This document shows, piece after piece, positions 4,955 to 57,444 of a DNA stretch of 64,000 bases. Positions within the stretch are counted from its first letter, which is position 1; the number at the start of each line of letters is the position of its first letter. Made by a program: the position numbers and the translations under genes. The notes beneath the pieces were generated by a model, which searched no databases, was not told the DNA's origin, and saw only the letters and a program-made list of their open reading frames with translations. Source of the DNA: Acidobacteriota bacterium. Its GTDB lineage: Bacteria; Acidobacteriota; UBA890; WLXD01. The DNA is taken from the NCBI GenBank assembly GCA_963666055.2, contig CAXWPH010000015.1, forward strand, positions 1,312,001-1,376,000, given 5' to 3'.

Positions 4955-4974
4955 TTGATGGGACGGCCTGCTAG
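4955..4974 (-). mobile_element. IS/MITE end fragment at CTAG
   Basis: CTAG|CAGGCCGTCCC on the - strand, overlapping the sulfatase stop; same terminus as the MITE at 39256. Confidence 0.5.
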
Positions 4975-7646: not shown

Positions 7647-7884
7647 TTTCGAGTAACGGTAGTAGGCATTCTCGCTGCCGGTGTGTCTCGAGCGTTTACG
7701 AACCGCGGTAGGATCCCGACACTCCCATCGGCGCACTTCGCCTATTTCTTGCCTAACTCTGTGCAAAGAGCGTCGGATTCTGGTTGTTTCTCTTTGTATC
7801 TAATTGTACGCGTGCAGTCGGAACCCACTGCGAATACAAAGGAAACGAGCGAGATACAACCAGATACAAACGGGCGGCTTTGAC

Positions 7885-7923
7885 TTAGAAGTCCGCTGCT
7901 CTATCCAGCTGAGCTACGGGCGC
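7885..7923 (-). repeat. att site: 5' half of tRNA-Arg (copy 2)
   Basis: 39/39 identical to 2506-2544; AGATACAA repeats at 7852 and 7862; IHF-like GATCAATAACTTA at 7934. Confidence 0.92.
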
Positions 7924-8075
7924 GAGTGTCTAAGATCAATAACTTAGGCCGTTGTTGGCCTGGCAAGACGAGACGGATTCGGGACATTGCCTACGAGTTG
8001 ATCGCCCACGAACCCAGACATGTCGACCATTTGACCACCAGGACAGCGGCCCAACCATCTTCGGAGGTCTCACCG

Positions 8076-44906: not shown

Positions 44907-45071
44907 CGATCAGTCCTCCACGAATTCGGCGACAATCCGATTGCTGTTCATGGGCCGCGGAGCCGCAGATCCGCGCCGCACGCGACCATCACGTATTCAG
45001 TGCTGCAGTCCGAACTGTGCCCACGATTGTGCCCGCGGGAACTAACCAGCGCCAACTGGGCCCGTTTGGTC

Positions 45072-45110
45072 TTAGAAGTCCGCTGCTCTATCCAGCTGAG
45101 CTACGGGCGC
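45072..45110 (-). repeat. att site: 5' half of tRNA-Arg (copy 3)
   Basis: 39/39 identical to 2506-2544; TGTGCCC repeats at 45016 and 45028. Confidence 0.92.
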
Positions 45111-45125
45111 GTGAGAGTTAAGTAT

Positions 45126-45683
45126 CTATTTCACAGCAAGTTGAGACGTATCAGAGAAATCGACAATACGACCAAATCGGCCTGATTGTCCCTTTTCTGT
45201 CCCCTTTCCGCCGGCGAGCCGCCCGAGTGCGCTCCTCAGATCGGCCTCATCGACGATGTCGTAGCGGTCGAAAACGGAGCGCGTCTTGTGACCGGTGATC
45301 GCCATTGCCGTCTTCTCGGGTACGCCGGCGCGGACCAGGTTGCGGACTGCTGTCCGGCGAAAGTCATGCAGCAGCTTGCCCGGGCACCCGGCGGCTTTGC
45401 AAGCTGACGCCCAAGCCTTGCGGAACCCCTTGATCGCCTTTCCATCTCTGTGGAACACGTAGGGACAGATAGTGTCGTCAGCCGTCAGGCGCTGGTGCTC
45501 TTGCCACTGCCGCTCGATGACCTGGACCAGTTCCGGGAGTAGATCGTAGGGAAGTGTTCGCCCCTCAGAGTTCTTCGTGGTTCCGGGTTCGAGCCGCACC
45601 GTTCGCGACGCCCTGTCCACGTGTGCCCAGGTGAGCAGGAGGATTTCTGAGGGGACTCGCCAGCCGGTGTAGTAAGCGAACGT
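45126..45683 (-). pseudogene. Tyrosine integrase, catalytic domain only
   Basis: YYTGWR, TTKN, HDFRR, TGHKT, DRY; N-terminal domains missing; reads toward the tRNA half. Confidence 0.9.
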
Positions 45684-45753: not shown

Positions 45754-46479
45754 CTAGAAGAGGGATCGGATGAGGTCCTCGCGGAAGTCCGATCCCGGCG
45801 CCAGGTAGCCACCCAGCACGGCACGACGATGCTCGGACCCCTCCTGCCTGCGGTCGATGAGGACGCTCCCGTCCAGCGCCTGAAAAGCCACGTGGAGGGT
45901 GTCGCCCCGGATCCGGTACCAAATAGTCTCGCCGTCCCGGATACCTCGATCGCGGATCGGCTCGTACTGGGCCTCGATCTCGGGAAGCAGGGTCCGAACC
46001 TCCTCCGACGACAGGAAACCGGCGTCCCGGGCGTGTTCCATGTTCTCGCGAATCCCGTCCAGGAACTGCTCGAGGCTGACGTCGCGGAGGAAGCGGCTCC
46101 GAACCAGCAGGTCCTGGGATTCGACGGCGGCTCGCACGACCGACTCGGCCAGCTCGTCGGTGTACTGCCGGCCGTCAACAAGGTGCTCCAGCTCGGCGGC
46201 AGTCTGCGCTCCGAACCGCAGCGTCAGGCGCAGGACGTCCACCCGGAAGATCGTTCGCTCGTAGACCATTTCCAGGGAGGCGTACGGACCCGAGGCCAGT
46301 CCGGTGGCGTCTACGGGAATCGCGGCGGCGGCGCCTTCGTCCTGGTCCCGGACCGCCGGCGCGCGCCCCGGCACGGCGAGGACGAGCGCCAGCGCCGGGA
46401 CTGCGATCCCGAGGGGTTCCCTCGCGGTTCGCGGGGTGCGGCCGCGGTCGTCGACACCCACCCTCGCCATCGTCAACAT
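45754..46479 (-). CDS. Hypothetical exported protein
   Basis: Coherent GC-rich ORF coupled to the methyltransferase; hydrophobic N-terminus. Confidence 0.6.
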   Translation of the reverse strand: MLTMARVGVDDRGRTPRTAREPLGIAVPALALVLAVPGRAPAVRDQDEGAAAAIPVDATGLASGPYASLEMVYERTIFRVDVLRLTLRFGAQTAAELEHLVDGRQYTDELAESVVRAAVESQDLLVRSRFLRDVSLEQFLDGIRENMEHARDAGFLSSEEVRTLLPEIEAQYEPIRDRGIRDGETIWYRIRGDTLHVAFQALDGSVLIDRRQEGSEHRRAVLGGYLAPGSDFREDLIRSLF

Positions 46480-47381
46480 CGTTCCCGGGGCCCCGGGTCA
46501 TCCTCCCGAGGGCGGCGGGCGGTGAGCATCGCGTACCGCATCGCCCCGACCCGATACGCCAGCCAGATGCGCACCATCGTCCGAGCGAAGACCCGTTCCT
46601 CCCGGCTCCGGTCCAGGATGAAGCGTCGATAGTCGGAACGTCGGAGGAGCGCTCCAGCGAGCCGGCGGAGACAGATCGTCCACGTCCTCCGGACCTTTCG
46701 GGTGAGGTCCTCGACCTCCACGACCCGGAGGCCGGCCGCCTCCACCGCTGCCCGCAGGCTCGATCCGGTGGGGAGCCACGCCAGCCGGCCCTCCCGGCGG
46801 ATGGGTTCGAGGAGATGCCGCCGCGCCCATCCCGACGGCGCTTCGGCCGCGAGCCAGGCACAGACCACCAGCCGTCCCTCCGGTCTGAGGACCCGTCGCG
46901 CCTCGCGGAACGCTCGACGCGGATCCGCCATGTGCTCGGTGCTCTCGATGGCCAGGACCGCATCGAAGGCTTCCGCCGGCAGCCCGTTGTCGAGCCAATC
47001 CCGAAGCAGATGGCATGGATTCGGGCCCGGCGCAGCACGGACGGCGTACCGGTGCTGCGCCGGCGAGATGGTGAGGGCCGTCACCCGGGCGTCCCTCTCC
47101 CCGGCCAGGAGACGGGCGGTGCCGCCGTACCCCGAGCCGGCGTCGCAGACTTGGTCGCGAGGCCCGATCCCCGCCCGGTCCGCGGCGCTGCGCACCAGTG
47201 CTTCCACCGCCTCCTGCTGCGTCTCCCGGCCGGTGATCCACAGGCCGTGATGCACGTGTTCCCCCCAGAACTCCCGGTAGAAGCGGTCGAGCTGATCGTA
47301 ATGGCGGGCCACCGCCAGTGGTAAGTCAAACACTCGCCCCCCGCATTCACTCGAACTCACACGGCCGACCTTCGCCTTCAT
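46473..47381 (-). CDS. SAM-dependent methyltransferase (tocopherol/sterol MT-like); start uncertain
   Basis: WGEHVHHGLW, DAGSGYGG, IESTEH. Confidence 0.88.
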   Translation of the reverse strand: MKAKVGRVSSSECGGRVFDLPLAVARHYDQLDRFYREFWGEHVHHGLWITGRETQQEAVEALVRSAADRAGIGPRDQVCDAGSGYGGTARLLAGERDARVTALTISPAQHRYAVRAAPGPNPCHLLRDWLDNGLPAEAFDAVLAIESTEHMADPRRAFREARRVLRPEGRLVVCAWLAAEAPSGWARRHLLEPIRREGRLAWLPTGSSLRAAVEAAGLRVVEVEDLTRKVRRTWTICLRRLAGALLRRSDYRRFILDRSREERVFARTMVRIWLAYRVGAMRYAMLTARRPREDDPGPRERC

Positions 47382-47576: not shown

Positions 47577-47594
47577 ACATCAAAGACCGAGGCT

Positions 47595-47866
47595 AATGTG
47601 CGGGTGGTTCAGGGCGGCAGCAGCGCGGGCCTCCTGCTCGAAGCGGGCCAGGCGCTCGGGGTCAGAGGCGAACTCGGCGGGTAGCACCTTGATGGCCACC
47701 TTGCGGCCCAGGCGTGTGTCCTCAGCTAGCCACACTTCGCCCATACCGCCAGCACCGAGCTGCTCGGTGATCTCGTAGTGGCCTAGTTTGGTGCCGGGTT
47801 CCATGGCGCTACCGGAGGATGGTGGATGAGCGCCTGAAGCCTATCGCCGGAGTCTACGCGGGTCCA
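47595..47866 (-). pseudogene. Kinase promoter plus first 70 codons
   Basis: TGGACC-N17-TAGGCT-N33-ATG(47804); [12 protein letters not shown]...LNHPHI. Confidence 0.88.
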
Positions 47867-47991
47867 CGGAAGACGTCGTCACGGGCTTTTACTAGCGCCG
47901 AATGGCCCATACGCGAGCGTATCGGGAGACCTATATATACGGACGTGGCTCCGCCACCCACACATCGTTGGCAGCCTAGTTCACCCTGGAC

Positions 47992-48172: not shown

Positions 48173-50086
48173 TCACGTTGTCGACAACAAGTCCGTCACC
48201 GCCCGATGCGCCTCACCAATGGCAACCTCGGTCATGGCCCACGCGCCCGCGTCGGAGTTGGCGATGGCGATCCGGCCAAAAGGTTGGCGGGCGACGAGCC
48301 ACGGACGACGCTCGGGCGGTAGATCATCGGGTCTCCACGCGACCTCACCCGTCTTCGGATCCTGGCCGTATGCATAGCCGTGTGGCCAGCGATTCACGGT
48401 TATCGCCGCGATGTCGCGCGCCGGGTCGAAGCCTCCGGCTGACAGTATCCGGCCGAGCTGATCCCTGATCTTGCGCTCGAAGGTCGCGAACGTCGTCGCC
48501 AGCAGACGCCGGCGCGCGGCCTTCCACTGCTCAGGCACGGACCGCCCGCGGGCCTCCGGCACCAGGGGAATGCGGAACATACGCACGACGATGGGCTCGT
48601 CAGGCGTGCTCGCGTGTCGGTAGCTCCCAATGCTGAGCGGTCGCTGCACATTAACGTTCTCGAAGTAGCTGCCTGGGCAGCGCACCCTGCTCACACCGAG
48701 CTTGGCGAAGGCGGTCCAGTTGCGGATCAGGACGTTGGTGTAGATAAGGGGCGCCTTGAGTGCGATCGATAGCGCGTGTTTTTGCGGATCCGGCAGTTCC
48801 TCGCAAATCAAAGGGATCACGGCGTTGTAGCAGGCGAGCACGCAACGACCGGCGCGAACTCGCCGGGCGTGGCCGTGGCGGACGTAGGTGACCTCGACTT
48901 CCTTGGCGATTCGCCGATCGCCACGGTGAGCTACCTGCACCGCTGTGCTCTCCAGCCGCACGCGGACAGCCGAGCCCTCCCGATCGAGCTTGCCATAGTC
49001 GAACGGAGCGTCGACAACGTCCTCCATCGTGCTGCCGGAAGCGACCTCTGGGATCAGCGACCGGACGATCAGACGCGCGATTGACGCGTTGCCATCCGGA
49101 AACTGGAAGAAAGCACGCTCCTCGACGGGTTCGGCATCGTCGTCGCCGAGCCCCAGCCCGGTGGTCCCAGGCCAGCTGCCGGCGACGAGCCAGGCGGGGA
49201 CGCCATCGAGGCCGATAGTCCAACCGCCGGAGGTCTCGAGGAAGGAGATTGCCTCGCGACCGACCTTGGCCACCTTCAAGAGAAAGTCCTCGTAGCTCGT
49301 GCGCCGAAGAAACGCGGCCTTCTCCTCCAAGCTGAGGTGGGCCAAGTAATCGATGCTCGAGTCGTGGAGTCGTAGGATGTCATCACGTGCCCCTTCGGAC
49401 AGGGGCGCGCGCGCCAGGAACTCGCGCCAAGAGGGCTCGCCTTCGCCTACTAGCAGGCGATCGGTGCCGAACGTTTCGCGGTCGAAGAAAACCGATCTGC
49501 GCAGGCCGAGCGAGCTGTACAGGTCGCTATCGACGAATTCGGAGTAACGGCTTACGTCGATGCCAATCCCGCGGATCAGGCGCTGGGCTCCTTCACCGTA
49601 CTCGTTCAGGTTGGAGATAAAGACCGTGCCGCCATGCGACAGGAACACCCGACCGTCGAGCCGGAACTCGTTGCGCTTGGCATGACCGCCGAAGTCGTCG
49701 TGGTTGTCGAGAATCAAGATGCGGGCGCCGGGAACAGCTTCTTGATAGAACCACGCCGCCGCGAGGCCGCTGAGGCCACCGCCAACCACGACCAGATCAT
49801 AGAGCTCACCCGTCTCCTCCGCGTTGTCCCAGCGCATGCCTTCGACAAGCTGGTGGGCAACCTCGTAGGAGCCGTCGTGGCTGCCGCGCATACCAGTGCG
49901 GATGGGTGGATACGTGTCGGCGAGGGCCTGTGAGACTCTTCCCGGAGCCTCAGGGCTCGCCAGGGCGTTCGTCTGCGCCCATGGGAGCGTGAGACTGCCG
50001 CTCAGCGCAACGCTGATACCGGAGACAAAGTCGCGACGGTTAATCTCCCGGTGCATCCCGAGATCACGATCATCACTGCTGGACAT
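48173..50086 (-). CDS. Spermidine dehydrogenase-like FAD oxidoreductase, Tat motif
   Basis: INRRDF, GMRGSH, DNHDDFGGHAKRNE, FPDGNA, NRWPHGY. Confidence 0.88.
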   Translation of the reverse strand: MSSSDDRDLGMHREINRRDFVSGISVALSGSLTLPWAQTNALASPEAPGRVSQALADTYPPIRTGMRGSHDGSYEVAHQLVEGMRWDNAEETGELYDLVVVGGGLSGLAAAWFYQEAVPGARILILDNHDDFGGHAKRNEFRLDGRVFLSHGGTVFISNLNEYGEGAQRLIRGIGIDVSRYSEFVDSDLYSSLGLRRSVFFDRETFGTDRLLVGEGEPSWREFLARAPLSEGARDDILRLHDSSIDYLAHLSLEEKAAFLRRTSYEDFLLKVAKVGREAISFLETSGGWTIGLDGVPAWLVAGSWPGTTGLGLGDDDAEPVEERAFFQFPDGNASIARLIVRSLIPEVASGSTMEDVVDAPFDYGKLDREGSAVRVRLESTAVQVAHRGDRRIAKEVEVTYVRHGHARRVRAGRCVLACYNAVIPLICEELPDPQKHALSIALKAPLIYTNVLIRNWTAFAKLGVSRVRCPGSYFENVNVQRPLSIGSYRHASTPDEPIVVRMFRIPLVPEARGRSVPEQWKAARRRLLATTFATFERKIRDQLGRILSAGGFDPARDIAAITVNRWPHGYAYGQDPKTGEVAWRPDDLPPERRPWLVARQPFGRIAIANSDAGAWAMTEVAIGEAHRAVTDLLSTT

Positions 50087-50238
50087 AGGTCGTCCTCCAG
50101 CTTCTCTGACGCCGTAGCTGCGCGGATCGTCGGTTCTCGAGTCCCTACCGATTCCCCTCGTGTCCAAACTCTACCGTTCCGGAGCCTAATGCCCAGCTGC
50201 GCTGAGCGCCACGGCACGTCGGAGGGGAATCCGCCGAT

Positions 50239-50390
50239 CGTGTCGCGTGCTCGACACACCTGCCCCATACCGCTTTCACCGAGCGGGGCGAGGGTCTCGT
50301 AGTGGCCTAATCGCGTGCCAGGTTCCATAGCGCTGCCAGCCGGGGTTGGGTGGGCGCGTGAAGCCTATCGTCGGGGCACGCGGGGGTCTA
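50239..50390 (-). pseudogene. Kinase promoter plus first 30 codons
   Basis: TAGACC-N17-TAGGCT-N33-ATG(50328); MEPGTRLGHYETLAPLGESGMGQVCRARDT. Confidence 0.88.
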
Positions 50391-50557
50391 CGGGCGGGCA
50401 CCGCCGTGGCCCCAGCTTCGCGTGCCGGAACGCCCCGATACCTCAAGTAGTCGACTCCAGTCGACTGGCGTCTACTGGAGTGAACCCCAGTCGTGGAGAC
50501 GTTTTGGAGACGGCAAGTCAGCGACGCGGCGGATCTTGGTGGTCTGCGCTGGGTAGG

Positions 50558-50990
50558 CTACGGCTCCGTCGGCACGAGCCGCTTCAGCTCGTCGAACCAT
50601 TTGAGCACAACTTCGATCTGGGTAACCGGCTCCGCCGGCTCGGAGAATTTGATCATCACAAGATCGCCGTCGGGAGTGATGTCGTAGGCTCGGACGGGGC
50701 TCGTCCAGACCACCCCCGGCGCCTCAAACAACACGCTCGGCGTTCCGAGATCGAGTGTTTCACCGCCGGTGACTGTGACCTCGACGATCATCATCCGCTC
50801 ATACAGCTCTCCTGCTCGATACAAGAGCGCTTGCCCGTCCCTCCCCCACACCGGGCTGGTGCCACCGTTCGTCGAGATCCGTATCTCTGGGTCTGGTCCC
50901 GGGAAAGGCCGCACGTAAATCTCGTGCTGCCCCGTGTGATCGGAGGCATAGGCTAACCACGTCCCAACTGGCGAGAACGTCGGGGGATAC
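50558..50990 (-). pseudogene. Kinase-propeller C-terminal remnant
   Basis: FSPVGTWLAYASDHTGQHEIYVRPFPG...WFDELKRLVPTEP*. Confidence 0.85.
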
Positions 50991-51043
50991 GCCCCCGAGG
51001 ACCCCAAGGGGTGTAAGCTCGGGAAAATCGCCGTGAGGGAATT

Positions 51044-51259
51044 ATGTTCGGCTCGATCGGGGGCACTGAGCTCCTCATTATCCTGGTGATCGCGCTCGTG
51101 GCGTTCGGCCCGAAGCGTCTGCCGGAGCTGGGGCGCACGATTGGCAAGGGCCTGCGTGAGTTCCGACGAGCCTCGAACGACCTGAAACGCTCGCTTGAAG
51201 ATGAGATCATGCTCGATGAGCACCGTAGCGAGCGGACGGGTTCTCGCGATACTGACTGA
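51044..51259 (+). CDS. tatA: Twin-arginine translocase TatA/TatB-family subunit
   Basis: MFGSIGGTELLIILVIALVAFGPKRLPELGR. Confidence 0.88.
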   Translation: MFGSIGGTELLIILVIALVAFGPKRLPELGRTIGKGLREFRRASNDLKRSLEDEIMLDEHRSERTGSRDTD

Positions 51260-51371
51260 GCGAGTGAACCGACTGGACGAGTGGTCGGAGTAACCGCGCG
51301 GTGAGCGAGTCTGAAGGCGCGACGATGGCCGAGGACCAGCCGGGAGCTGGCCGGACGAGACGCTACCGGAA

Positions 51372-51484
51372 ATGACGTTGCTCGGTCACCTGACCGAGCT
51401 CCGCCGACGCCTCATCGTCAGCTTGGTGACGTTCGTCATCGGGATGGTGGTGTGCTGGGCGTTCGCGGCGGACATCTACAGGCG
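51372..51484 (+). pseudogene. tatC: TatC N-terminal fragment
   Basis: MTLLGHLTELRRRLIVS; homology ends after the first TM. Confidence 0.8.
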
Positions 51485-51613
51485 GATGTCCCAGCTCGTC
51501 CCAGGACGCTGTTCCTGGAAGACCAAGTTCCCGTCGAACGACCAGGCCCATGGGGATTGGATGTTCGGGCTCTTGGTGAGCTGCTCGACCTCCCCGCTGC
51601 CGTCGGCCCTCTG
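51485..51613 (-). pseudogene. Kinase-propeller internal remnant
   Basis: QRADGSGEVEQLTKSPNIQSPWAWSFDGNLVFQEQRPGTSWDI aligns to SVEGSREPEELI..PSDWSADG..GGDV of the intact kinase. Confidence 0.75.
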
Positions 51614-51786
51614 GATCAGTTTGGACCTCGTCTGGACCCTGGCGTTGGGCGTTACCGGCGTGCTGCCCCTGTTGTTGGGGAGTGGGTAACGGCGGGGGAA
51701 CGTGAGCCCCCCGTGATCGCTACGGCGCTATGTCGCTTCGATGAGCGCCTCGATCGCCAGATGCGCCGCGCCGATCGCACCTTCGG

Positions 51787-51981
51787 TCATCGCTCGTGCA
51801 CGCTCCACAGAGTCATCGGATCGCTCCAGAGGTCGTAGAGCAGCAGTGGGGAGGTGCGCGTATCCGGATCGTTGATCTCCAACGAAGCGCCCCAGTGACC
51901 GTCCACCACCTCGATGACGCCCTCCAGCTCGCCGCCATCGGCATCGAACCCCTGGCGCTCCTCGTTGCTCAGACAAAGCAT
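51787..51981 (-). CDS. Hypothetical protein
   Basis: Short acidic ORF; no recognised motif. Confidence 0.35.
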   Translation of the reverse strand: MLCLSNEERQGFDADGGELEGVIEVVDGHWGASLEINDPDTRTSPLLLYDLWSDPMTLWSVHER

Positions 51982-52049
51982 CCGATCACTACCTCACGGC
52001 CAGACGGGGCAGCGGCACCGTGGGCCTCGACTTTCGGGCGGGCGGGCTT

Positions 52050-53957
52050 CTACGCCAGCAGATCGCGGATCGCCCGGTGTCCTTGGTCGATGGCACAATC
52101 GACGTAGGCTTCGCCACCGGCATCCGAGTTGGCAACTGCCACCCTTCCGAACGGCTTACGGCCGATGACACAGGGCATGTCCTCGTCGGTCCAGTCCGGC
52201 TCGCCGAGGTAGGCGTACTCGTAGGCGTAGCCGTGCGGCCAACGGTTGACGGTAATGGCCTCGATATCGGAGGCTGGATCAAAGCCTCCGGCACCGAGGA
52301 TGCGGCCGAGTTGGTCCCGAATGTTGTGCTCGAAGACCCTGAAGGGGGTCGTCAACAGCTCATAGCGTCCCGCCCGGAACTGCTCTTTGGGCGGCAAGCC
52401 GGGCTTCGTCGAGCTGCGAGAGAGGTGCAACGCCGTCGGCTCATCCGGAGAGCTCGGGTAGCGATAGTCGCCGAGGCTGACAGGGAAGTCCAGGCTGACT
52501 CCGGCGAAATAACTACCCGGACAGGAGACACCGCTAATCCCCAGCTTGTGGAAGCAGCGCCAGTTGCGGATCACGACGTTCGTATAGGTTAGCGGCAGCT
52601 TCACTGCATAGGAGAGGGCTTGCTTTTGTTGCTCCGGCATCTCCGGGCAAAGATACGGAATGACGCTGTTCCAACAGGCCAGTACCGCGTAACTACCCCT
52701 CACCCGCTCTGCTTTGCCGGCTCGCACGTAGGTTAGCTCGACATCGGCGGCACTCTCGGGCGCCCCCCGATGGAGCACCCGGACCACCGTGCTGTCGAGA
52801 CGCACTCGCGCCGGCGCACCGGGCTCGTCGAGCCGACCGTAATCGAAGCGCGCGGTCACCACATCGTCCATCGTGTTGCCTGCTGCGACGGCCGGGATCA
52901 ACGCCCGTACGATCAGCCGTGGGATCGAGGCGTTGCCGTCGGGAAAATGGAAGATATAGGGGTCGTCTTGCTGGTTGGCTTTCGCCGGCGCCCCCATTCT
53001 GCTCACCATGCTGCGTTCCAACCCGATTCCGTCGAATCCAGGGTACTCCAGCCTCCAGCCACGGATCGCAGCAACCCCATCGATGCCGATGCCGAACAGA
53101 CCGTTGCTGCGGGTCTGGAGATAGGTGGCGACCATAGGGTCGACCTTGGCATATTGCCGCAAGTAATCCCGGTAGCTTATGGCGCTCAGTCGACGGAGCT
53201 TCTGCTCGGGCGTGAGGTCCGGCATATAGTCGATGGACGCCGTGTAGAGTCGCACCAGATCCTTGCGCGCCGTCTCGGGAAGTGGTGTCAGCGCTGCGAA
53301 CTCCTCCCATGACATGCCGTCACGGACGATCAGCCGATCGTCGCCAAAGGTTTCGCGGTCGAAGAAGACGGCGCGCTTGAGACCGAGGGAGGCGAACAAC
53401 TCGGTGTCGAATGCCTCCTGAAAGCGCTCGAGATCGACCCCCAGATCGCTGAGCAACCGATGGCTCTCGGCGCTGAAGCCGGACGGTGTATCGATCGATT
53501 GGCTGCCTCCATAACCGATTAGCGGTCGTCCGCCAGCCTCGAACTCGTTGCGCTTGGCGTGACCGCCAAAGTCGTCGTGGTTGTCGAGCACCAGAATCTT
53601 GGCTTCCGGCCCAACCGCCTGACGGAAGAAATATGCGGCCGCCAGACCGCTGATACCGGCCCCCACGACGACCAGATCGTAGCGCTCACCCGTATCGGTA
53701 GCTTCGTCCTCCCAGGACCTGCCGTCCTTGAGCTCGTGGGAGGCCTCCCAGGAGCCATCGTGGCTTCCCCGCATGCCCGTGAGCATCGGTGGGTAGGCTG
53801 CGGCTGCCCCGTCGCCTGTGATCTCCAACGGTGTTGCCGACGCCAATCCGCCCAGACCCGGTACCCCGAGCAACGAACCAGCGACGGAGATCCGCACTCC
53901 GTCGAGAAAATCCCGCCGACTGATCGGCCGATTCATGCCGAGATCCCGATCACTCAC
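52050..53957 (-). CDS. Spermidine dehydrogenase-like FAD oxidoreductase, Tat motif
   Basis: ISRRDFL, GMRGSH, DNHDDFGGHAKRNE, HFPDGNA, NRWPHGY. Confidence 0.9.
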   Translation of the reverse strand: MSDRDLGMNRPISRRDFLDGVRISVAGSLLGVPGLGGLASATPLEITGDGAAAAYPPMLTGMRGSHDGSWEASHELKDGRSWEDEATDTGERYDLVVVGAGISGLAAAYFFRQAVGPEAKILVLDNHDDFGGHAKRNEFEAGGRPLIGYGGSQSIDTPSGFSAESHRLLSDLGVDLERFQEAFDTELFASLGLKRAVFFDRETFGDDRLIVRDGMSWEEFAALTPLPETARKDLVRLYTASIDYMPDLTPEQKLRRLSAISYRDYLRQYAKVDPMVATYLQTRSNGLFGIGIDGVAAIRGWRLEYPGFDGIGLERSMVSRMGAPAKANQQDDPYIFHFPDGNASIPRLIVRALIPAVAAGNTMDDVVTARFDYGRLDEPGAPARVRLDSTVVRVLHRGAPESAADVELTYVRAGKAERVRGSYAVLACWNSVIPYLCPEMPEQQKQALSYAVKLPLTYTNVVIRNWRCFHKLGISGVSCPGSYFAGVSLDFPVSLGDYRYPSSPDEPTALHLSRSSTKPGLPPKEQFRAGRYELLTTPFRVFEHNIRDQLGRILGAGGFDPASDIEAITVNRWPHGYAYEYAYLGEPDWTDEDMPCVIGRKPFGRVAVANSDAGGEAYVDCAIDQGHRAIRDLLA

Positions 53958-54124
53958 CGCCGTCTTCCACCTCGTGGATCGAGCCGACCATCGCTCGCAG
54001 ACTCACGGAAACAACACCGCCCCGGAAGGCTCAGGCGGTGATCAAAACACAAAGCCCGCAATCAGAAAAGCGAACCGCAGAAAGACCGGCGGCCAAGAAT
54101 CCGAAGGGCTCGGCGATCACCACC

Positions 54125-54220
54125 CATGGCGATGAAGCGCACGCCGTCCGACTCATCGAACCCGTGGATGGTGGCGATGTTGGGGTGGTTCAGCGAGGCG
54201 AGCAGCTTGGCTTCGCGCTC
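54125..54220 (-). pseudogene. Kinase fragment (subdomains III-V)
   Basis: EREAKLLASLNHPNIATIHGFDESDGVRFIAM, identical in protein to the intact kinase. Confidence 0.9.
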
Positions 54221-54813
54221 CGCCCTTCTTCTTCAGCGAACTTTCCTGGTGCTCACGATAAGCTCAGCGCATCCCGACGAAGCCTGCTATCGACCGCGCC
54301 CTCGCCGCCAGACAAGAGAACGGTACTAAGTGACCGATCCGAAGAGCGACAAACTGTGGACGGCCCAGGACACAGGGAAATATCCGGAGCCTCCTCCTCC
54401 TCCTCGTCCTCCTCTTCCTCCTCCACCTCCGCCGGCGCCGCCCGATCGGCGATGGCCCGCGACTACTTCGCCCCACTATCAGAAATAGGGAAAGTCGCGG
54501 GCAGAACTTAGCTCCCCGACATCATGTAGCCGTGTCCGAGTTGCTCCGTGCTCCCCGCGCTGTAGCCGAGTCGCCCCCGTTGCGACTAGGATGAGGTTTA
54601 CCTCTCGGCGCGGGACAAGGTTGGTCCTCAACCCGACCGCCGCTAGCGGGCAACGCTGGGACCTGCCGGTGAGGGGACCCCTAACGGCGAGAGTCCCGCG
54701 TTGAGGGGTCTCGCATCTAGCCGCGCTTGATCCGGTGCCCCTTCACGGCTGCGGCGCGTCCCGTCCCATGACCCCGACCACCTACCGAGCCCTCCAGTGA
54801 GAGGCCGCCGAGC

Positions 54814-55140
54814 ATGAGCAAGCTGGGCTTCGTCGACGGACGGCACTACTCGGCCTACGTGGTGGAGGTTCGTCACCTCAAGCGGGTGGGCGACTTCGAT
54901 GGCGCGAAGGAGCTTCTCCTGCGCCTGGTGGACGCCTCCGAGGCCGAGGCCGAGGGCGGAGGCTGGTGGGTTGATCCGTGGTACTACGAACACCTGGCTA
55001 TTATCTACCGGAAGAAGAAGCAGCCGGCCGACGAGCTCGCGATCCTCGAGCGGTACGAACGGCAAGCGAAGGCCCTTGGGGCCGTTCCAGAGAGGCTGGC
55101 TAAGCGCCTGGCCGGCTTGCGGGCCGAGGCGGCCCGATGA
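54814..55140 (+). CDS. Hypothetical helical (TPR-like) protein
   Basis: PWYYEHLAIIYRK...ELAILERY. Confidence 0.65.
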   Translation: MSKLGFVDGRHYSAYVVEVRHLKRVGDFDGAKELLLRLVDASEAEAEGGGWWVDPWYYEHLAIIYRKKKQPADELAILERYERQAKALGAVPERLAKRLAGLRAEAAR

Positions 55141-55349
55141 GAAGCCAGCTCATCGCCCTAAAGATGGACCTTCTGTCAGGGCAGGTCAGCTATCGGTGCA
55201 AGTGCAGGCGTATCGTCCGGGTTCACGCCTCGAACCTATCTACCGGAGCGGTCGACTACTGCGGCTGCGGTCATTTGCGGATCAACCTCAGCCAGGCTCA
55301 AGTCAACGGACACCGACAGATGGCCGGTCTCCCCGACCTCGAGGAGTAG
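55137..55349 (+). CDS. Small Cys-rich protein
   Basis: YRCKC...G..DYCGC; ATGA coupling to the previous gene. Confidence 0.5.
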   Translation: MRSQLIALKMDLLSGQVSYRCKCRRIVRVHASNLSTGAVDYCGCGHLRINLSQAQVNGHRQMAGLPDLEE

Positions 55350-55476
55350 GGGCCCATGAATACGCTCGAGATCATCGACGGCGCCACCCTCGTCGTTCGA
55401 GACGAGGACGGGGCCGAACTCGGCCGGGTTCCAACGACAGCTCCCAATAGCACGAGTACCGACCAGGAGGGAAACC

Positions 55477-55887
55477 ATGCTGTATTCAGAAGCCTTTGCA
55501 CCACTCGGGGACCACGTGCGGGCGGTGGAAGAGGCCGTTCGCACGCGAGACTGGGAAGCCTGGGCCGCATGCTTCATCGAGGAAGGCGTTTTCGTACCGC
55601 CCAACCAGCCCAGTGTCCACGGCCGCTCAGCGCTTGTTGAATACGGGAACGGTTTACCCGCGCTATCTGCCGTCGCGTTCTCCGATGTGCACTTTGACGG
55701 CAGCGGCGAGGTGGCCGTCGGCTGGTCGGCTTATGAGATGACGCTGCTGATCGACGGACAGGAGGTCAAGGACTCGGGATCGCAGCTGTTCTACTGCGTG
55801 GGGCAAACCGATGGAAGCTGGCTGGTCGTGCGCTGGATGTACAACTCGGACTTCCGGCGGTGGGCTGAGGAGCGAAGTCCTGCATAA
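55477..55887 (+). CDS. SnoaL/NTF2-like (DUF4440) protein
   Basis: PPNQPSVHGR...DGSWLV. Confidence 0.75.
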   Translation: MLYSEAFAPLGDHVRAVEEAVRTRDWEAWAACFIEEGVFVPPNQPSVHGRSALVEYGNGLPALSAVAFSDVHFDGSGEVAVGWSAYEMTLLIDGQEVKDSGSQLFYCVGQTDGSWLVVRWMYNSDFRRWAEERSPA

Positions 55888-57155: not shown

Positions 57156-57388
57156 TTAACTGAACATACCCTTGCGCCACCGGTAGTACGTGTTCTCGCT
57201 GATACCCAGCTTCCGGCATGCCTCCGGTGTCTTGGCTCCCTGCGCCAGCTCGATCTCTGCCTCCCTGAGCTTGGCGATGATCTGCCCTACTGTGTACCGC
57301 TTCCGCGCCATTGTTCCCCCTTCCCGAGCCTTCCTGAGAGCCTCAAATCCTAATTCTCAATCCGGCCCGATTATTGGGGGGCAGGTCA
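57156..57388 (-). mobile_element. IS3-family left end with truncated orfA
   Basis: TGACCTGCCCCCC terminus at 57388; ATG 57311 MARKRYT..QIIAKLREAE...CRKLGISENTYYRWRK. Confidence 0.88.
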
Positions 57389-57444
57389 TCTCTGACAGCA
57401 GCAACCGTTTGCTAGGCGACGATCCGGCGGGGCGTGGCTGTGAT

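Follow-up and report, generated by a model that had tools for sequence, protein, structure and literature searches.

Transposon derivatives of the Ds and Pack-MULE type keep their ends while the middle is replaced by captured gene scraps. For the T6SS (type VI secretion system) effector-immunity arrays of Vibrio cholerae, it has been proposed that genes were displaced by homology-facilitated illegitimate recombination, and the orphans of Rhs and contact-dependent inhibition (CDI) systems are cited as a related displaced-gene case (PMC5361080). In the tandem lpl paralog cluster of Staphylococcus aureus, conserved DNA stretches are described as the crossover sites (PMC2568036), and the patches made by SPDIR (short-patch double illegitimate recombination) are described as from 3 to about 100 bp long (10.1101/2023.11.22.568220). 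The locus considered in the present study lies in a 64,000-nucleotide stretch (the window, C15:1312001-1376000) of an Acidobacteriota genome of 5.7 Mb and 64% GC (G000), for which the named database matches also point to a probably acidobacterial origin, and carries, between window positions 50558 and 54220, pieces of Hanks-type Ser/Thr kinase genes joined to unrelated DNA. Two propeller pieces very likely belong to one gene interrupted in place by an inverted tatA-tatC' fragment. More interesting than the locus itself is the genus-wide excess of short kinase ends at the borders of unrelated cargo.

The interrupted gene is read on the minus strand. Its upstream piece, P1 (51479-51669), is clear from about 51610, degenerate upstream of that, and ends in SWDIRL followed by a stop; the downstream piece, P2 (50558-50983), comprises the last propeller blades, recognized as PD40, and the conserved tail through the stop at 50558. 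Between them lie an inverted plus-strand insert (51022-51481), in which Pfam identifies tatA in full (51044-51259) and the beginning of tatC (tatC', 51372-51481), and about 40 bp at the tat/P2 join (50984-51021) of decayed propeller or filler. An earlier note, made on this DNA from the letters alone, had described all three parts, and each was found where it had been placed. In 91 of 106 homologs, the best match of P1 was the blade directly before that of P2, and the remaining 15 gave no qualifying match; the projected ends of P1 and P2 were separated by a median of 7 residues in this set. With some 13 more codons of uncertain origin at the tat/P2 join, the loss at the insert amounts to about 9-22 codons, which corrects the 20-30 codons proposed earlier. 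Judged from sequence, P1 and P2 are thus very likely parts of one gene, interrupted in register. Several points weigh against this assignment. In a smaller set of 24 intact kinases, P1 matched the adjacent blade best in only 14, the matches in the other 10 being elsewhere and weak (≤23 bits); the scores of P1 and P2 were uncorrelated across homologs (rho 0.09 in the 106-homolog analysis and 0.11 in the 24-kinase set); and the parent allele, which the earlier note had hoped to see intact in a relative, was not found. By protein it was not found in G001-G005, the best P2 match being 51-52% across 5 genomes and 85 proteins; by DNA it was not found within the genus; contigs of the JGI collection gave 7 metagenome loci at ≤41% to P2; and the protein database gave 85 matches at ≤52%. 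Because the scores are uncorrelated and no parent was recovered, a single interrupted P1/P2 gene is likely rather than proven. The open reading frames (ORFs) at 50558-51223 (minus strand) and 51372-51689 (plus strand) were rejected as genes, both being chimeras that run into antisense sequence.

The insert is 460 bp long and matches both the housekeeping tatA-tatC copy (C14) and a second copy (C2) at 94.6%. It differs from these copies at 24 and 23 sites, respectively, as against 3 sites between the two, and from a copy in the sister genome G002 at 19 sites; its tatA frame is still open, and where the two were compared, its tatC part and the G002 copy show no codon difference. By this comparison the insert is a third tat allele, likely imported from a sister lineage. 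Counting against import, the position of the window allele in the tat tree is not firm (support 61), and origin from a lost third in-genome copy is therefore possible. In G000, G002 and G004, spare tat copies are located close to kinase arrays or SpdH-like genes, and the SpdH-like genes of G000 are often found near kinase remnants and a spare tatA-tatC copy. The P1/tat join has a 3-bp overlap (51479-51481), and the insert itself has no homologous anchor. A perfect 7-bp inverted repeat spans this join (51467-51488), reflecting either a fold-back step or chance. The locus does offer a clean example of a foreign fragment (460 bp) that was captured within a gene and lacks any transposase signature.

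The inner joins were compared with Logan contigs of public sequencing runs, the supporting runs coming from two studies, one of which is possibly the source of the assembly. The join at 51022 is bridged by contigs of runs X16, X17 and X18 with no differences and of X20 with three; that at 51481 by X18, X20 and X21 with no differences and by X16 and X17, which differ only near 51850-51870. Joins at 51670, 51793 and 51933 are likewise crossed. For each of the two joins of an upstream kinase scrap, described below, there is a crossing contig that reaches just 29-30 letters into the scrap, slightly short of the 31-letter threshold. That the mosaic is an assembly chimera formed via repeats is extremely unlikely: the inner joins are crossed by contigs from the runs of two studies, most of them with no differences, and fall in unique sequence. 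Pointing the other way, the genome is repeat-rich with many frameshifts, no record among the public-run contigs spans the whole stretch, so that the spanning support called for earlier exists for the inner joins only, and the X16/X17 contig departs near 51850-51915. There it tracks the window to about 51850 and then resembles a sulfatase paralog, which reflects either a chimeric path or a variant between strains; across 51850-51915, X18 and X20 agree with the window. No joint skipping the tat insert is listed in four runs, and, contigs dropping rare variants, this is not evidence of absence.

The earlier note had taken the whole of 54220-50558 for one kinase gene gutted by successive replacements, with three pieces still in order. 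The third piece, a 97-bp N-lobe scrap on the minus strand (54124-54220, positions 54-87 of the kinase-propeller family model), is present as described; it has neither promoter nor start codon, and 54220-54125 translates as EREAKLLASLNHPNIATIHGFDESDGVRFIAM. Its 32-codon protein is identical to seven ORFs of the genome, and it is identical at 94 of 96 nucleotides to the best intact paralog, whose propeller is only 34% identical to P2. Among the 120 pairs formed by 16 intact paralogs, 9 are at least 95% identical in nucleotides over the scrap stretch; 7 of these 9 have propellers ≤42% identical, and 8 of the 9 are pairs of the other subtype. Since near-identical N-lobes carry divergent propellers, the N-lobe is homogenised, and the partner of the scrap is not assignable. 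When each piece was compared with the 24 intact kinases, a comparison of low power with the parent absent, the scrap, P1 and P2 best matched three different kinases and not one full-length kinase.

Membership of all three pieces in one gene is improbable on this evidence, although some observations favour it. All pieces share a strand and follow the order of the model, scrap and stop together span 3.7 kb, which is close to gene size, the G002 orthologous flank also precedes a kinase stub, and several closer P2 paralogs in G000 share the N-lobe subtype of the scrap. The collinear order noted earlier is therefore real, but it does not exceed chance: truncated N-lobe pieces within 4 kb of orphan tails lie upstream in 16 of 54 cases and downstream in 15 of 54, and, the reverse order being about as common, head-before-tail order carries little weight; adjacent motifs, moreover, share a strand in 94 of 102 cases. 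The intact kinase that P2 matches best carries the other N-lobe subtype (43% to the scrap), those identical to the scrap hold ranks 5, 6, 10 and 23 of 24 for P2, and the G002 stub at the orthologous position belongs to the other kinase subtype.

Scrap and propeller are also separated by at least five unrelated segments. A segment of about 165 bp without a match (53958-54123) precedes an intact SpdH-like flavoprotein gene (52050-53957, minus strand; PDB 7d9i, E 7e-159) with the twin-arginine motif SRRDFL. This gene had been recognized earlier; the small ORF described after it (51981-51790) is in fact the C-terminal scrap of a sulfatase-like gene (51794-51981, minus strand), identified by sequence match and joined at 51793, with a 1-bp overlap, to the last 20 or so codons and 3' flank of another SpdH-like gene (51670-51793, minus strand; 84% to C12:16447-16562). 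The succession of sulfatase scrap and SpdH tail mirrors a sulfatase-kinase stub-SpdH block of G002, which suggests that another kinase head once lay between them, and blocks of stub plus SpdH recur as units. The upstream scrap is thus probably the leftover of another kinase copy, and the single-gene claim, being unproven, is less likely than a patchwork from several sources. What holds of the internal replacement in a former tandem array is the P1/P2 interruption and the kinase-array type of the region, not the placing of the scrap in the same gene. By all appearances, eight or more segments have been joined into a patchwork in this stretch, and the locus taken alone is a layered pseudogene with non-functional relics as its pieces.

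The pieces derive from a kinase family with a membrane span and a PD40/TolB-like propeller, an architecture common in Acidobacteriota and the same as that of the intact paralogs, in which HRDxKP and DFG-type motifs were found in 24 of 24, a hydrophobic span in 23 of 24, and a TolB propeller match; no cut-off of a curated NCBIfam family was reached. The promoter/N-lobe and the last ~45 bp are the only near-identical parts among some 20-25 full-length paralogs. Both ends were counted through G000, giving 73 promoter-like motifs (heads) and 76 tail motifs against none in reversed controls. Near-full kinases, counted by chaining matches across frameshifts, account for just 23 of the heads and 18 of the tails, and 43 of the 73 heads and 50 of the 76 tails are short orphans keeping ≤71 codons. 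Along the model (bins run over positions 0-902), the short matches fell mostly at the two ends, with 55 in bin 0-99, 2 in bin 100-199 and 35 in bin 800-902. Test fragments were detected in 56 of 56, 55 of 56 and 7 of 29 cases in the same bins, and, detection being as high in 100-199 as in 0-99 and lower in 800-902, differences in detection do not account for the bias towards the ends. Of 41 genomes, only the five of this genus carried the promoter motif (61, 4, 31, 12 and 8 copies), and the tail motif was present in 11, namely the same genus (64, 1, 28, 13 and 17 copies) and six others with 1-2 copies each. In a search of habitat data, run X1 (small share) yielded only two short tail matches, and no habitat is claimed.

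The gene following an orphan head was co-oriented with it in 32 of 42 cases (8 more heads had no gene) as against 247 of 418 (59%) locally (p = 0.016), and 4 of the 32 co-oriented genes are in-frame fusions to the kinase start; these calls come from a rough hexamer-based gene caller, and the 32 cargo genes include one kinase. After tails there was no orientation bias, 29 of 49 being equal to the baseline, and neither motif showed a replication-strand bias (heads 29 of 73, tails 33 of 76). In long ORFs of G000 at C10:8305-10836, C12:27896-29077, C15:1302138-1303820 and C3:2102-3454, the first 24-38 kinase codons continue in frame into unrelated proteins that appear to be secreted. Kinase genes also occur as tandem pairs, the stop of one overlapping the start of the next, at G000 C8:28666-34079, C13:45843-51259, C14:416431-419916 and elsewhere, and the junction of such pairs often persists alone as a tail-plus-head fragment.

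The sister genome G002 allows the locus to be compared directly. A flank of about 1.4 kb (54285-55668) is common to both genomes at 94%, and in the window it is followed by a 64-bp segment (54221-54284) without a match in the genome or the fetched loci, and then by the scrap. The counterpart of this flank in G002 leads into a stub of the other kinase subtype, behind which come other cargo, then a tail and finally an intact kinase; both genomes thus have kinase-array ground at this site, with differing content. Over 39 G002 loci picked for carrying head or tail motifs, 31 of the 282 synteny breaks between the two genomes lay at kinase ends, where 8.9 ± 2.9 were expected (maximum 20 in 2000 draws), a 3.5-fold enrichment, and none of 9 SpdH-motif controls had a synteny break. 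Five shared blocks (95.5-99.4% identical) contain a tail and end 25-63 bp past the start of the tail motif; one of them, 4.9 kb at 99.4%, is in different places in the two genomes. The bearing of these figures on exchange at kinase ends is reduced by several considerations: the loci were chosen for these very motifs, 251 of the 282 breaks are not at kinase ends, plain deletion too puts breaks beside remnants, two cases (L142 and L146) are simple deletions in G002 that left only tails, and no crossover was mapped inside an anchor.

Some of these considerations speak for ordinary erosion, in which repeated deletions among interspersed kinases leave heads that persist by promoter capture and tails that persist by adjacency, the ends not being landing sites. 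In its favour are the two clear G002 deletions, the co-orientation bias after heads, the location of most synteny breaks elsewhere, and the abundance of motifs resembling the ends of insertion sequences (IS), which border some indels. Erosion nevertheless seems unlikely as the full account. No orientation bias is seen that could account for the keeping of tails, of which 50 of 76 are nonetheless short orphans; these are no more diverged than attached tails (5.2% vs 6.0%, in a search that itself caps divergence); the shared blocks end at the outer edge of the tails; and the inverted tat insert could not be produced by deletion alone.

A mobile origin, with promoter and tail as termini of an element or sites of a site-specific recombinase and the head-cargo-tail units as internally deleted, gene-capturing derivatives, is very improbable. 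Conservation does drop sharply immediately upstream of the promoter motif and again shortly past the stop codon, an insertion in G002 that carries a 4-bp duplication terminates 15 bp beyond a tail stop, and a short hairpin is possible in the tail core. However, heads (P) and tails (T) do not alternate (P-T 29, T-T 23, T-P 21, P-P 17), their inner breakpoints are scattered, and the tail gave no signal as a structured RNA or DNA site (median z −0.8 and −0.4, respectively), all of which argues against element ends or recombinase sites. The differences among tails are mainly at third codon positions, and of 8 inspected indels none had the promoter at one end and the tail at the other with a duplication.

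The explanation we favour, with a confidence barely above even, is replacement of cargo by illegitimate joining, anchored by homology at the conserved ends of the kinase genes, together with promoter capture, the P1/P2 gene having been split by a likely imported tat scrap and the upstream scrap probably being left from another copy. DNA from close relatives would pair at the conserved promoter/N-lobe or at the tail, which would act as a RecA anchor, since only the ends are kept near-identical among the paralogs. The other end of the incoming DNA would then be joined at overlaps of 0-3 bp with deletion of resident sequence, by homology-facilitated illegitimate recombination or by Ku-LigD end-joining, and the tat scrap may have been joined at both ends by illegitimate recombination. 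Repeated rounds would shave the kinases to their ends and leave changing cargo between, and selection would likely retain many heads, because these lend promoter and start codon to the cargo. Ku and LigD genes are adjacent at C3:31.7-35 kb, and ComEC and DprA are encoded as well; going by gene content, this set would permit the mechanism without showing it. A further point against is that ComEC and DprA also match in 10 and 11 of 14 control genomes, respectively, so that their presence says little.

A wider interpretation of the same observations, rather doubtful as yet, is a dispersed, recombinase-free cassette-exchange system, in which some 70 promoter/heads and 70 tails would serve as landing pads, sister lineages would exchange kilobase cargo as well as sensor domains, and incoming genes would be turned on by the promoter and start codon of the kinase. 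If the ends are indeed recombination anchors and portable promoters, paralog expansion would itself build hotspots of gene gain, and variable sensor propellers would be swappable between fixed ends.

Immediately past P2, a 71-bp relic of an SpdH 3'-flank repeat (50442-50514; 98.6% to C13:40671-40741) lies between the P2 stop and a conserved promoter-like motif of the kinase family (50329-50392, minus strand), which starts about 170 bp past the stop at 50558. The motif is thus where the promoter of a next kinase had been expected, but that kinase is only a 30-codon stub (50239-50328, minus strand; identified by sequence match) fused to DNA upstream of a second intact SpdH-like gene (48173-50089, minus strand). 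A scan for the sigma-70 consensus found no site in the motif, whose promoter function is suggested by position and conservation, and the second SpdH-like gene is likely driven by this captured kinase promoter. A related stub-plus-SpdH block also occurs at G000 C13 and in G002. The SpdH-like family has 35 matches in G000, 31 of them aligned over >500 residues; a search of genome contigs, among which near records may be missing, gave no close ortholog of the window SpdH-like gene, the best being 60%. Further along the window, a promoter with a 71-codon kinase stub lies upstream of a methyltransferase (47580-47870 and 46473-47381), and a block at 45754-46989 is 99% identical to G002 DNA directly following a 28-codon stub there.

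Additionally, several mobile or repeated features were observed. The window carries a tRNA-Arg(TCT) at 2469-2544 with matching copies of 39-41 bp at about 7884-7924 and 45071-45111, and a truncated tyrosine integrase (45126-45620) beside the last of these; together, they likely delimit an att-bounded island of about 42 kb. The CTAG-flanked IS-end-like motif has 599 matches as against 173 for the reversed control (2 mismatches) and occurs in the window at 4974, 16345, 20457, 29527, 39252 and 39427. A 3.3-kb insertion in G002 (L123:9826-13172) shows a CTAG duplication and is bounded on one side by the IS-end-like motif and on the other by a kinase tail. A 220-bp IS-like fragment (57170-57390) has many copies at 91-93% in G002 and G004. 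In G000, about 12 kb are present twice in inverted orientation with identical match scores (C8:31344-43085 and C8:53236-65155), as a recent duplication or an assembly effect.

A literature search on the expansion of this kinase family or its orphan ends in Acidobacteria, which did not cover subscription papers, found nothing. The promoter-tail units were considered as a transposon derivative or an integron-like cassette and rejected on the missing alternation, the scattered breaks and the 8 indels, none of which was a promoter-to-tail unit with a duplication; in contrast to Ds and Pack-MULE derivatives, they showed neither paired ends nor terminal repeats nor target duplications. The tat insert resembles SPDIR, in which a short stretch is replaced by ectopic DNA with microhomology joins at both ends, but it is not taken for such a patch, as 460 bp exceeds the range of 3 to about 100 bp (10.1101/2023.11.22.568220). 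In the lpl cluster, tandem paralogs likewise have their variable parts shuffled while a unit of 3' end, intergenic region and 5' end persists; the conserved stretch there is central and parts of paralogs are shuffled, whereas here it is terminal and mostly joined to foreign genes (PMC2568036). The T6SS arrays of V. cholerae resemble the present case in the anchor proposed, a conserved stretch, in the displacement of older sequence by new modules, and in the accumulation of orphans (PMC5361080). Here, by contrast, a family of signalling kinases would supply the anchors with its two ends, each dispersed over about 70 sites; the cargo is made up of unrelated enzymes along with secreted proteins, and the orphans, unlike in those arrays, are no immunity genes.

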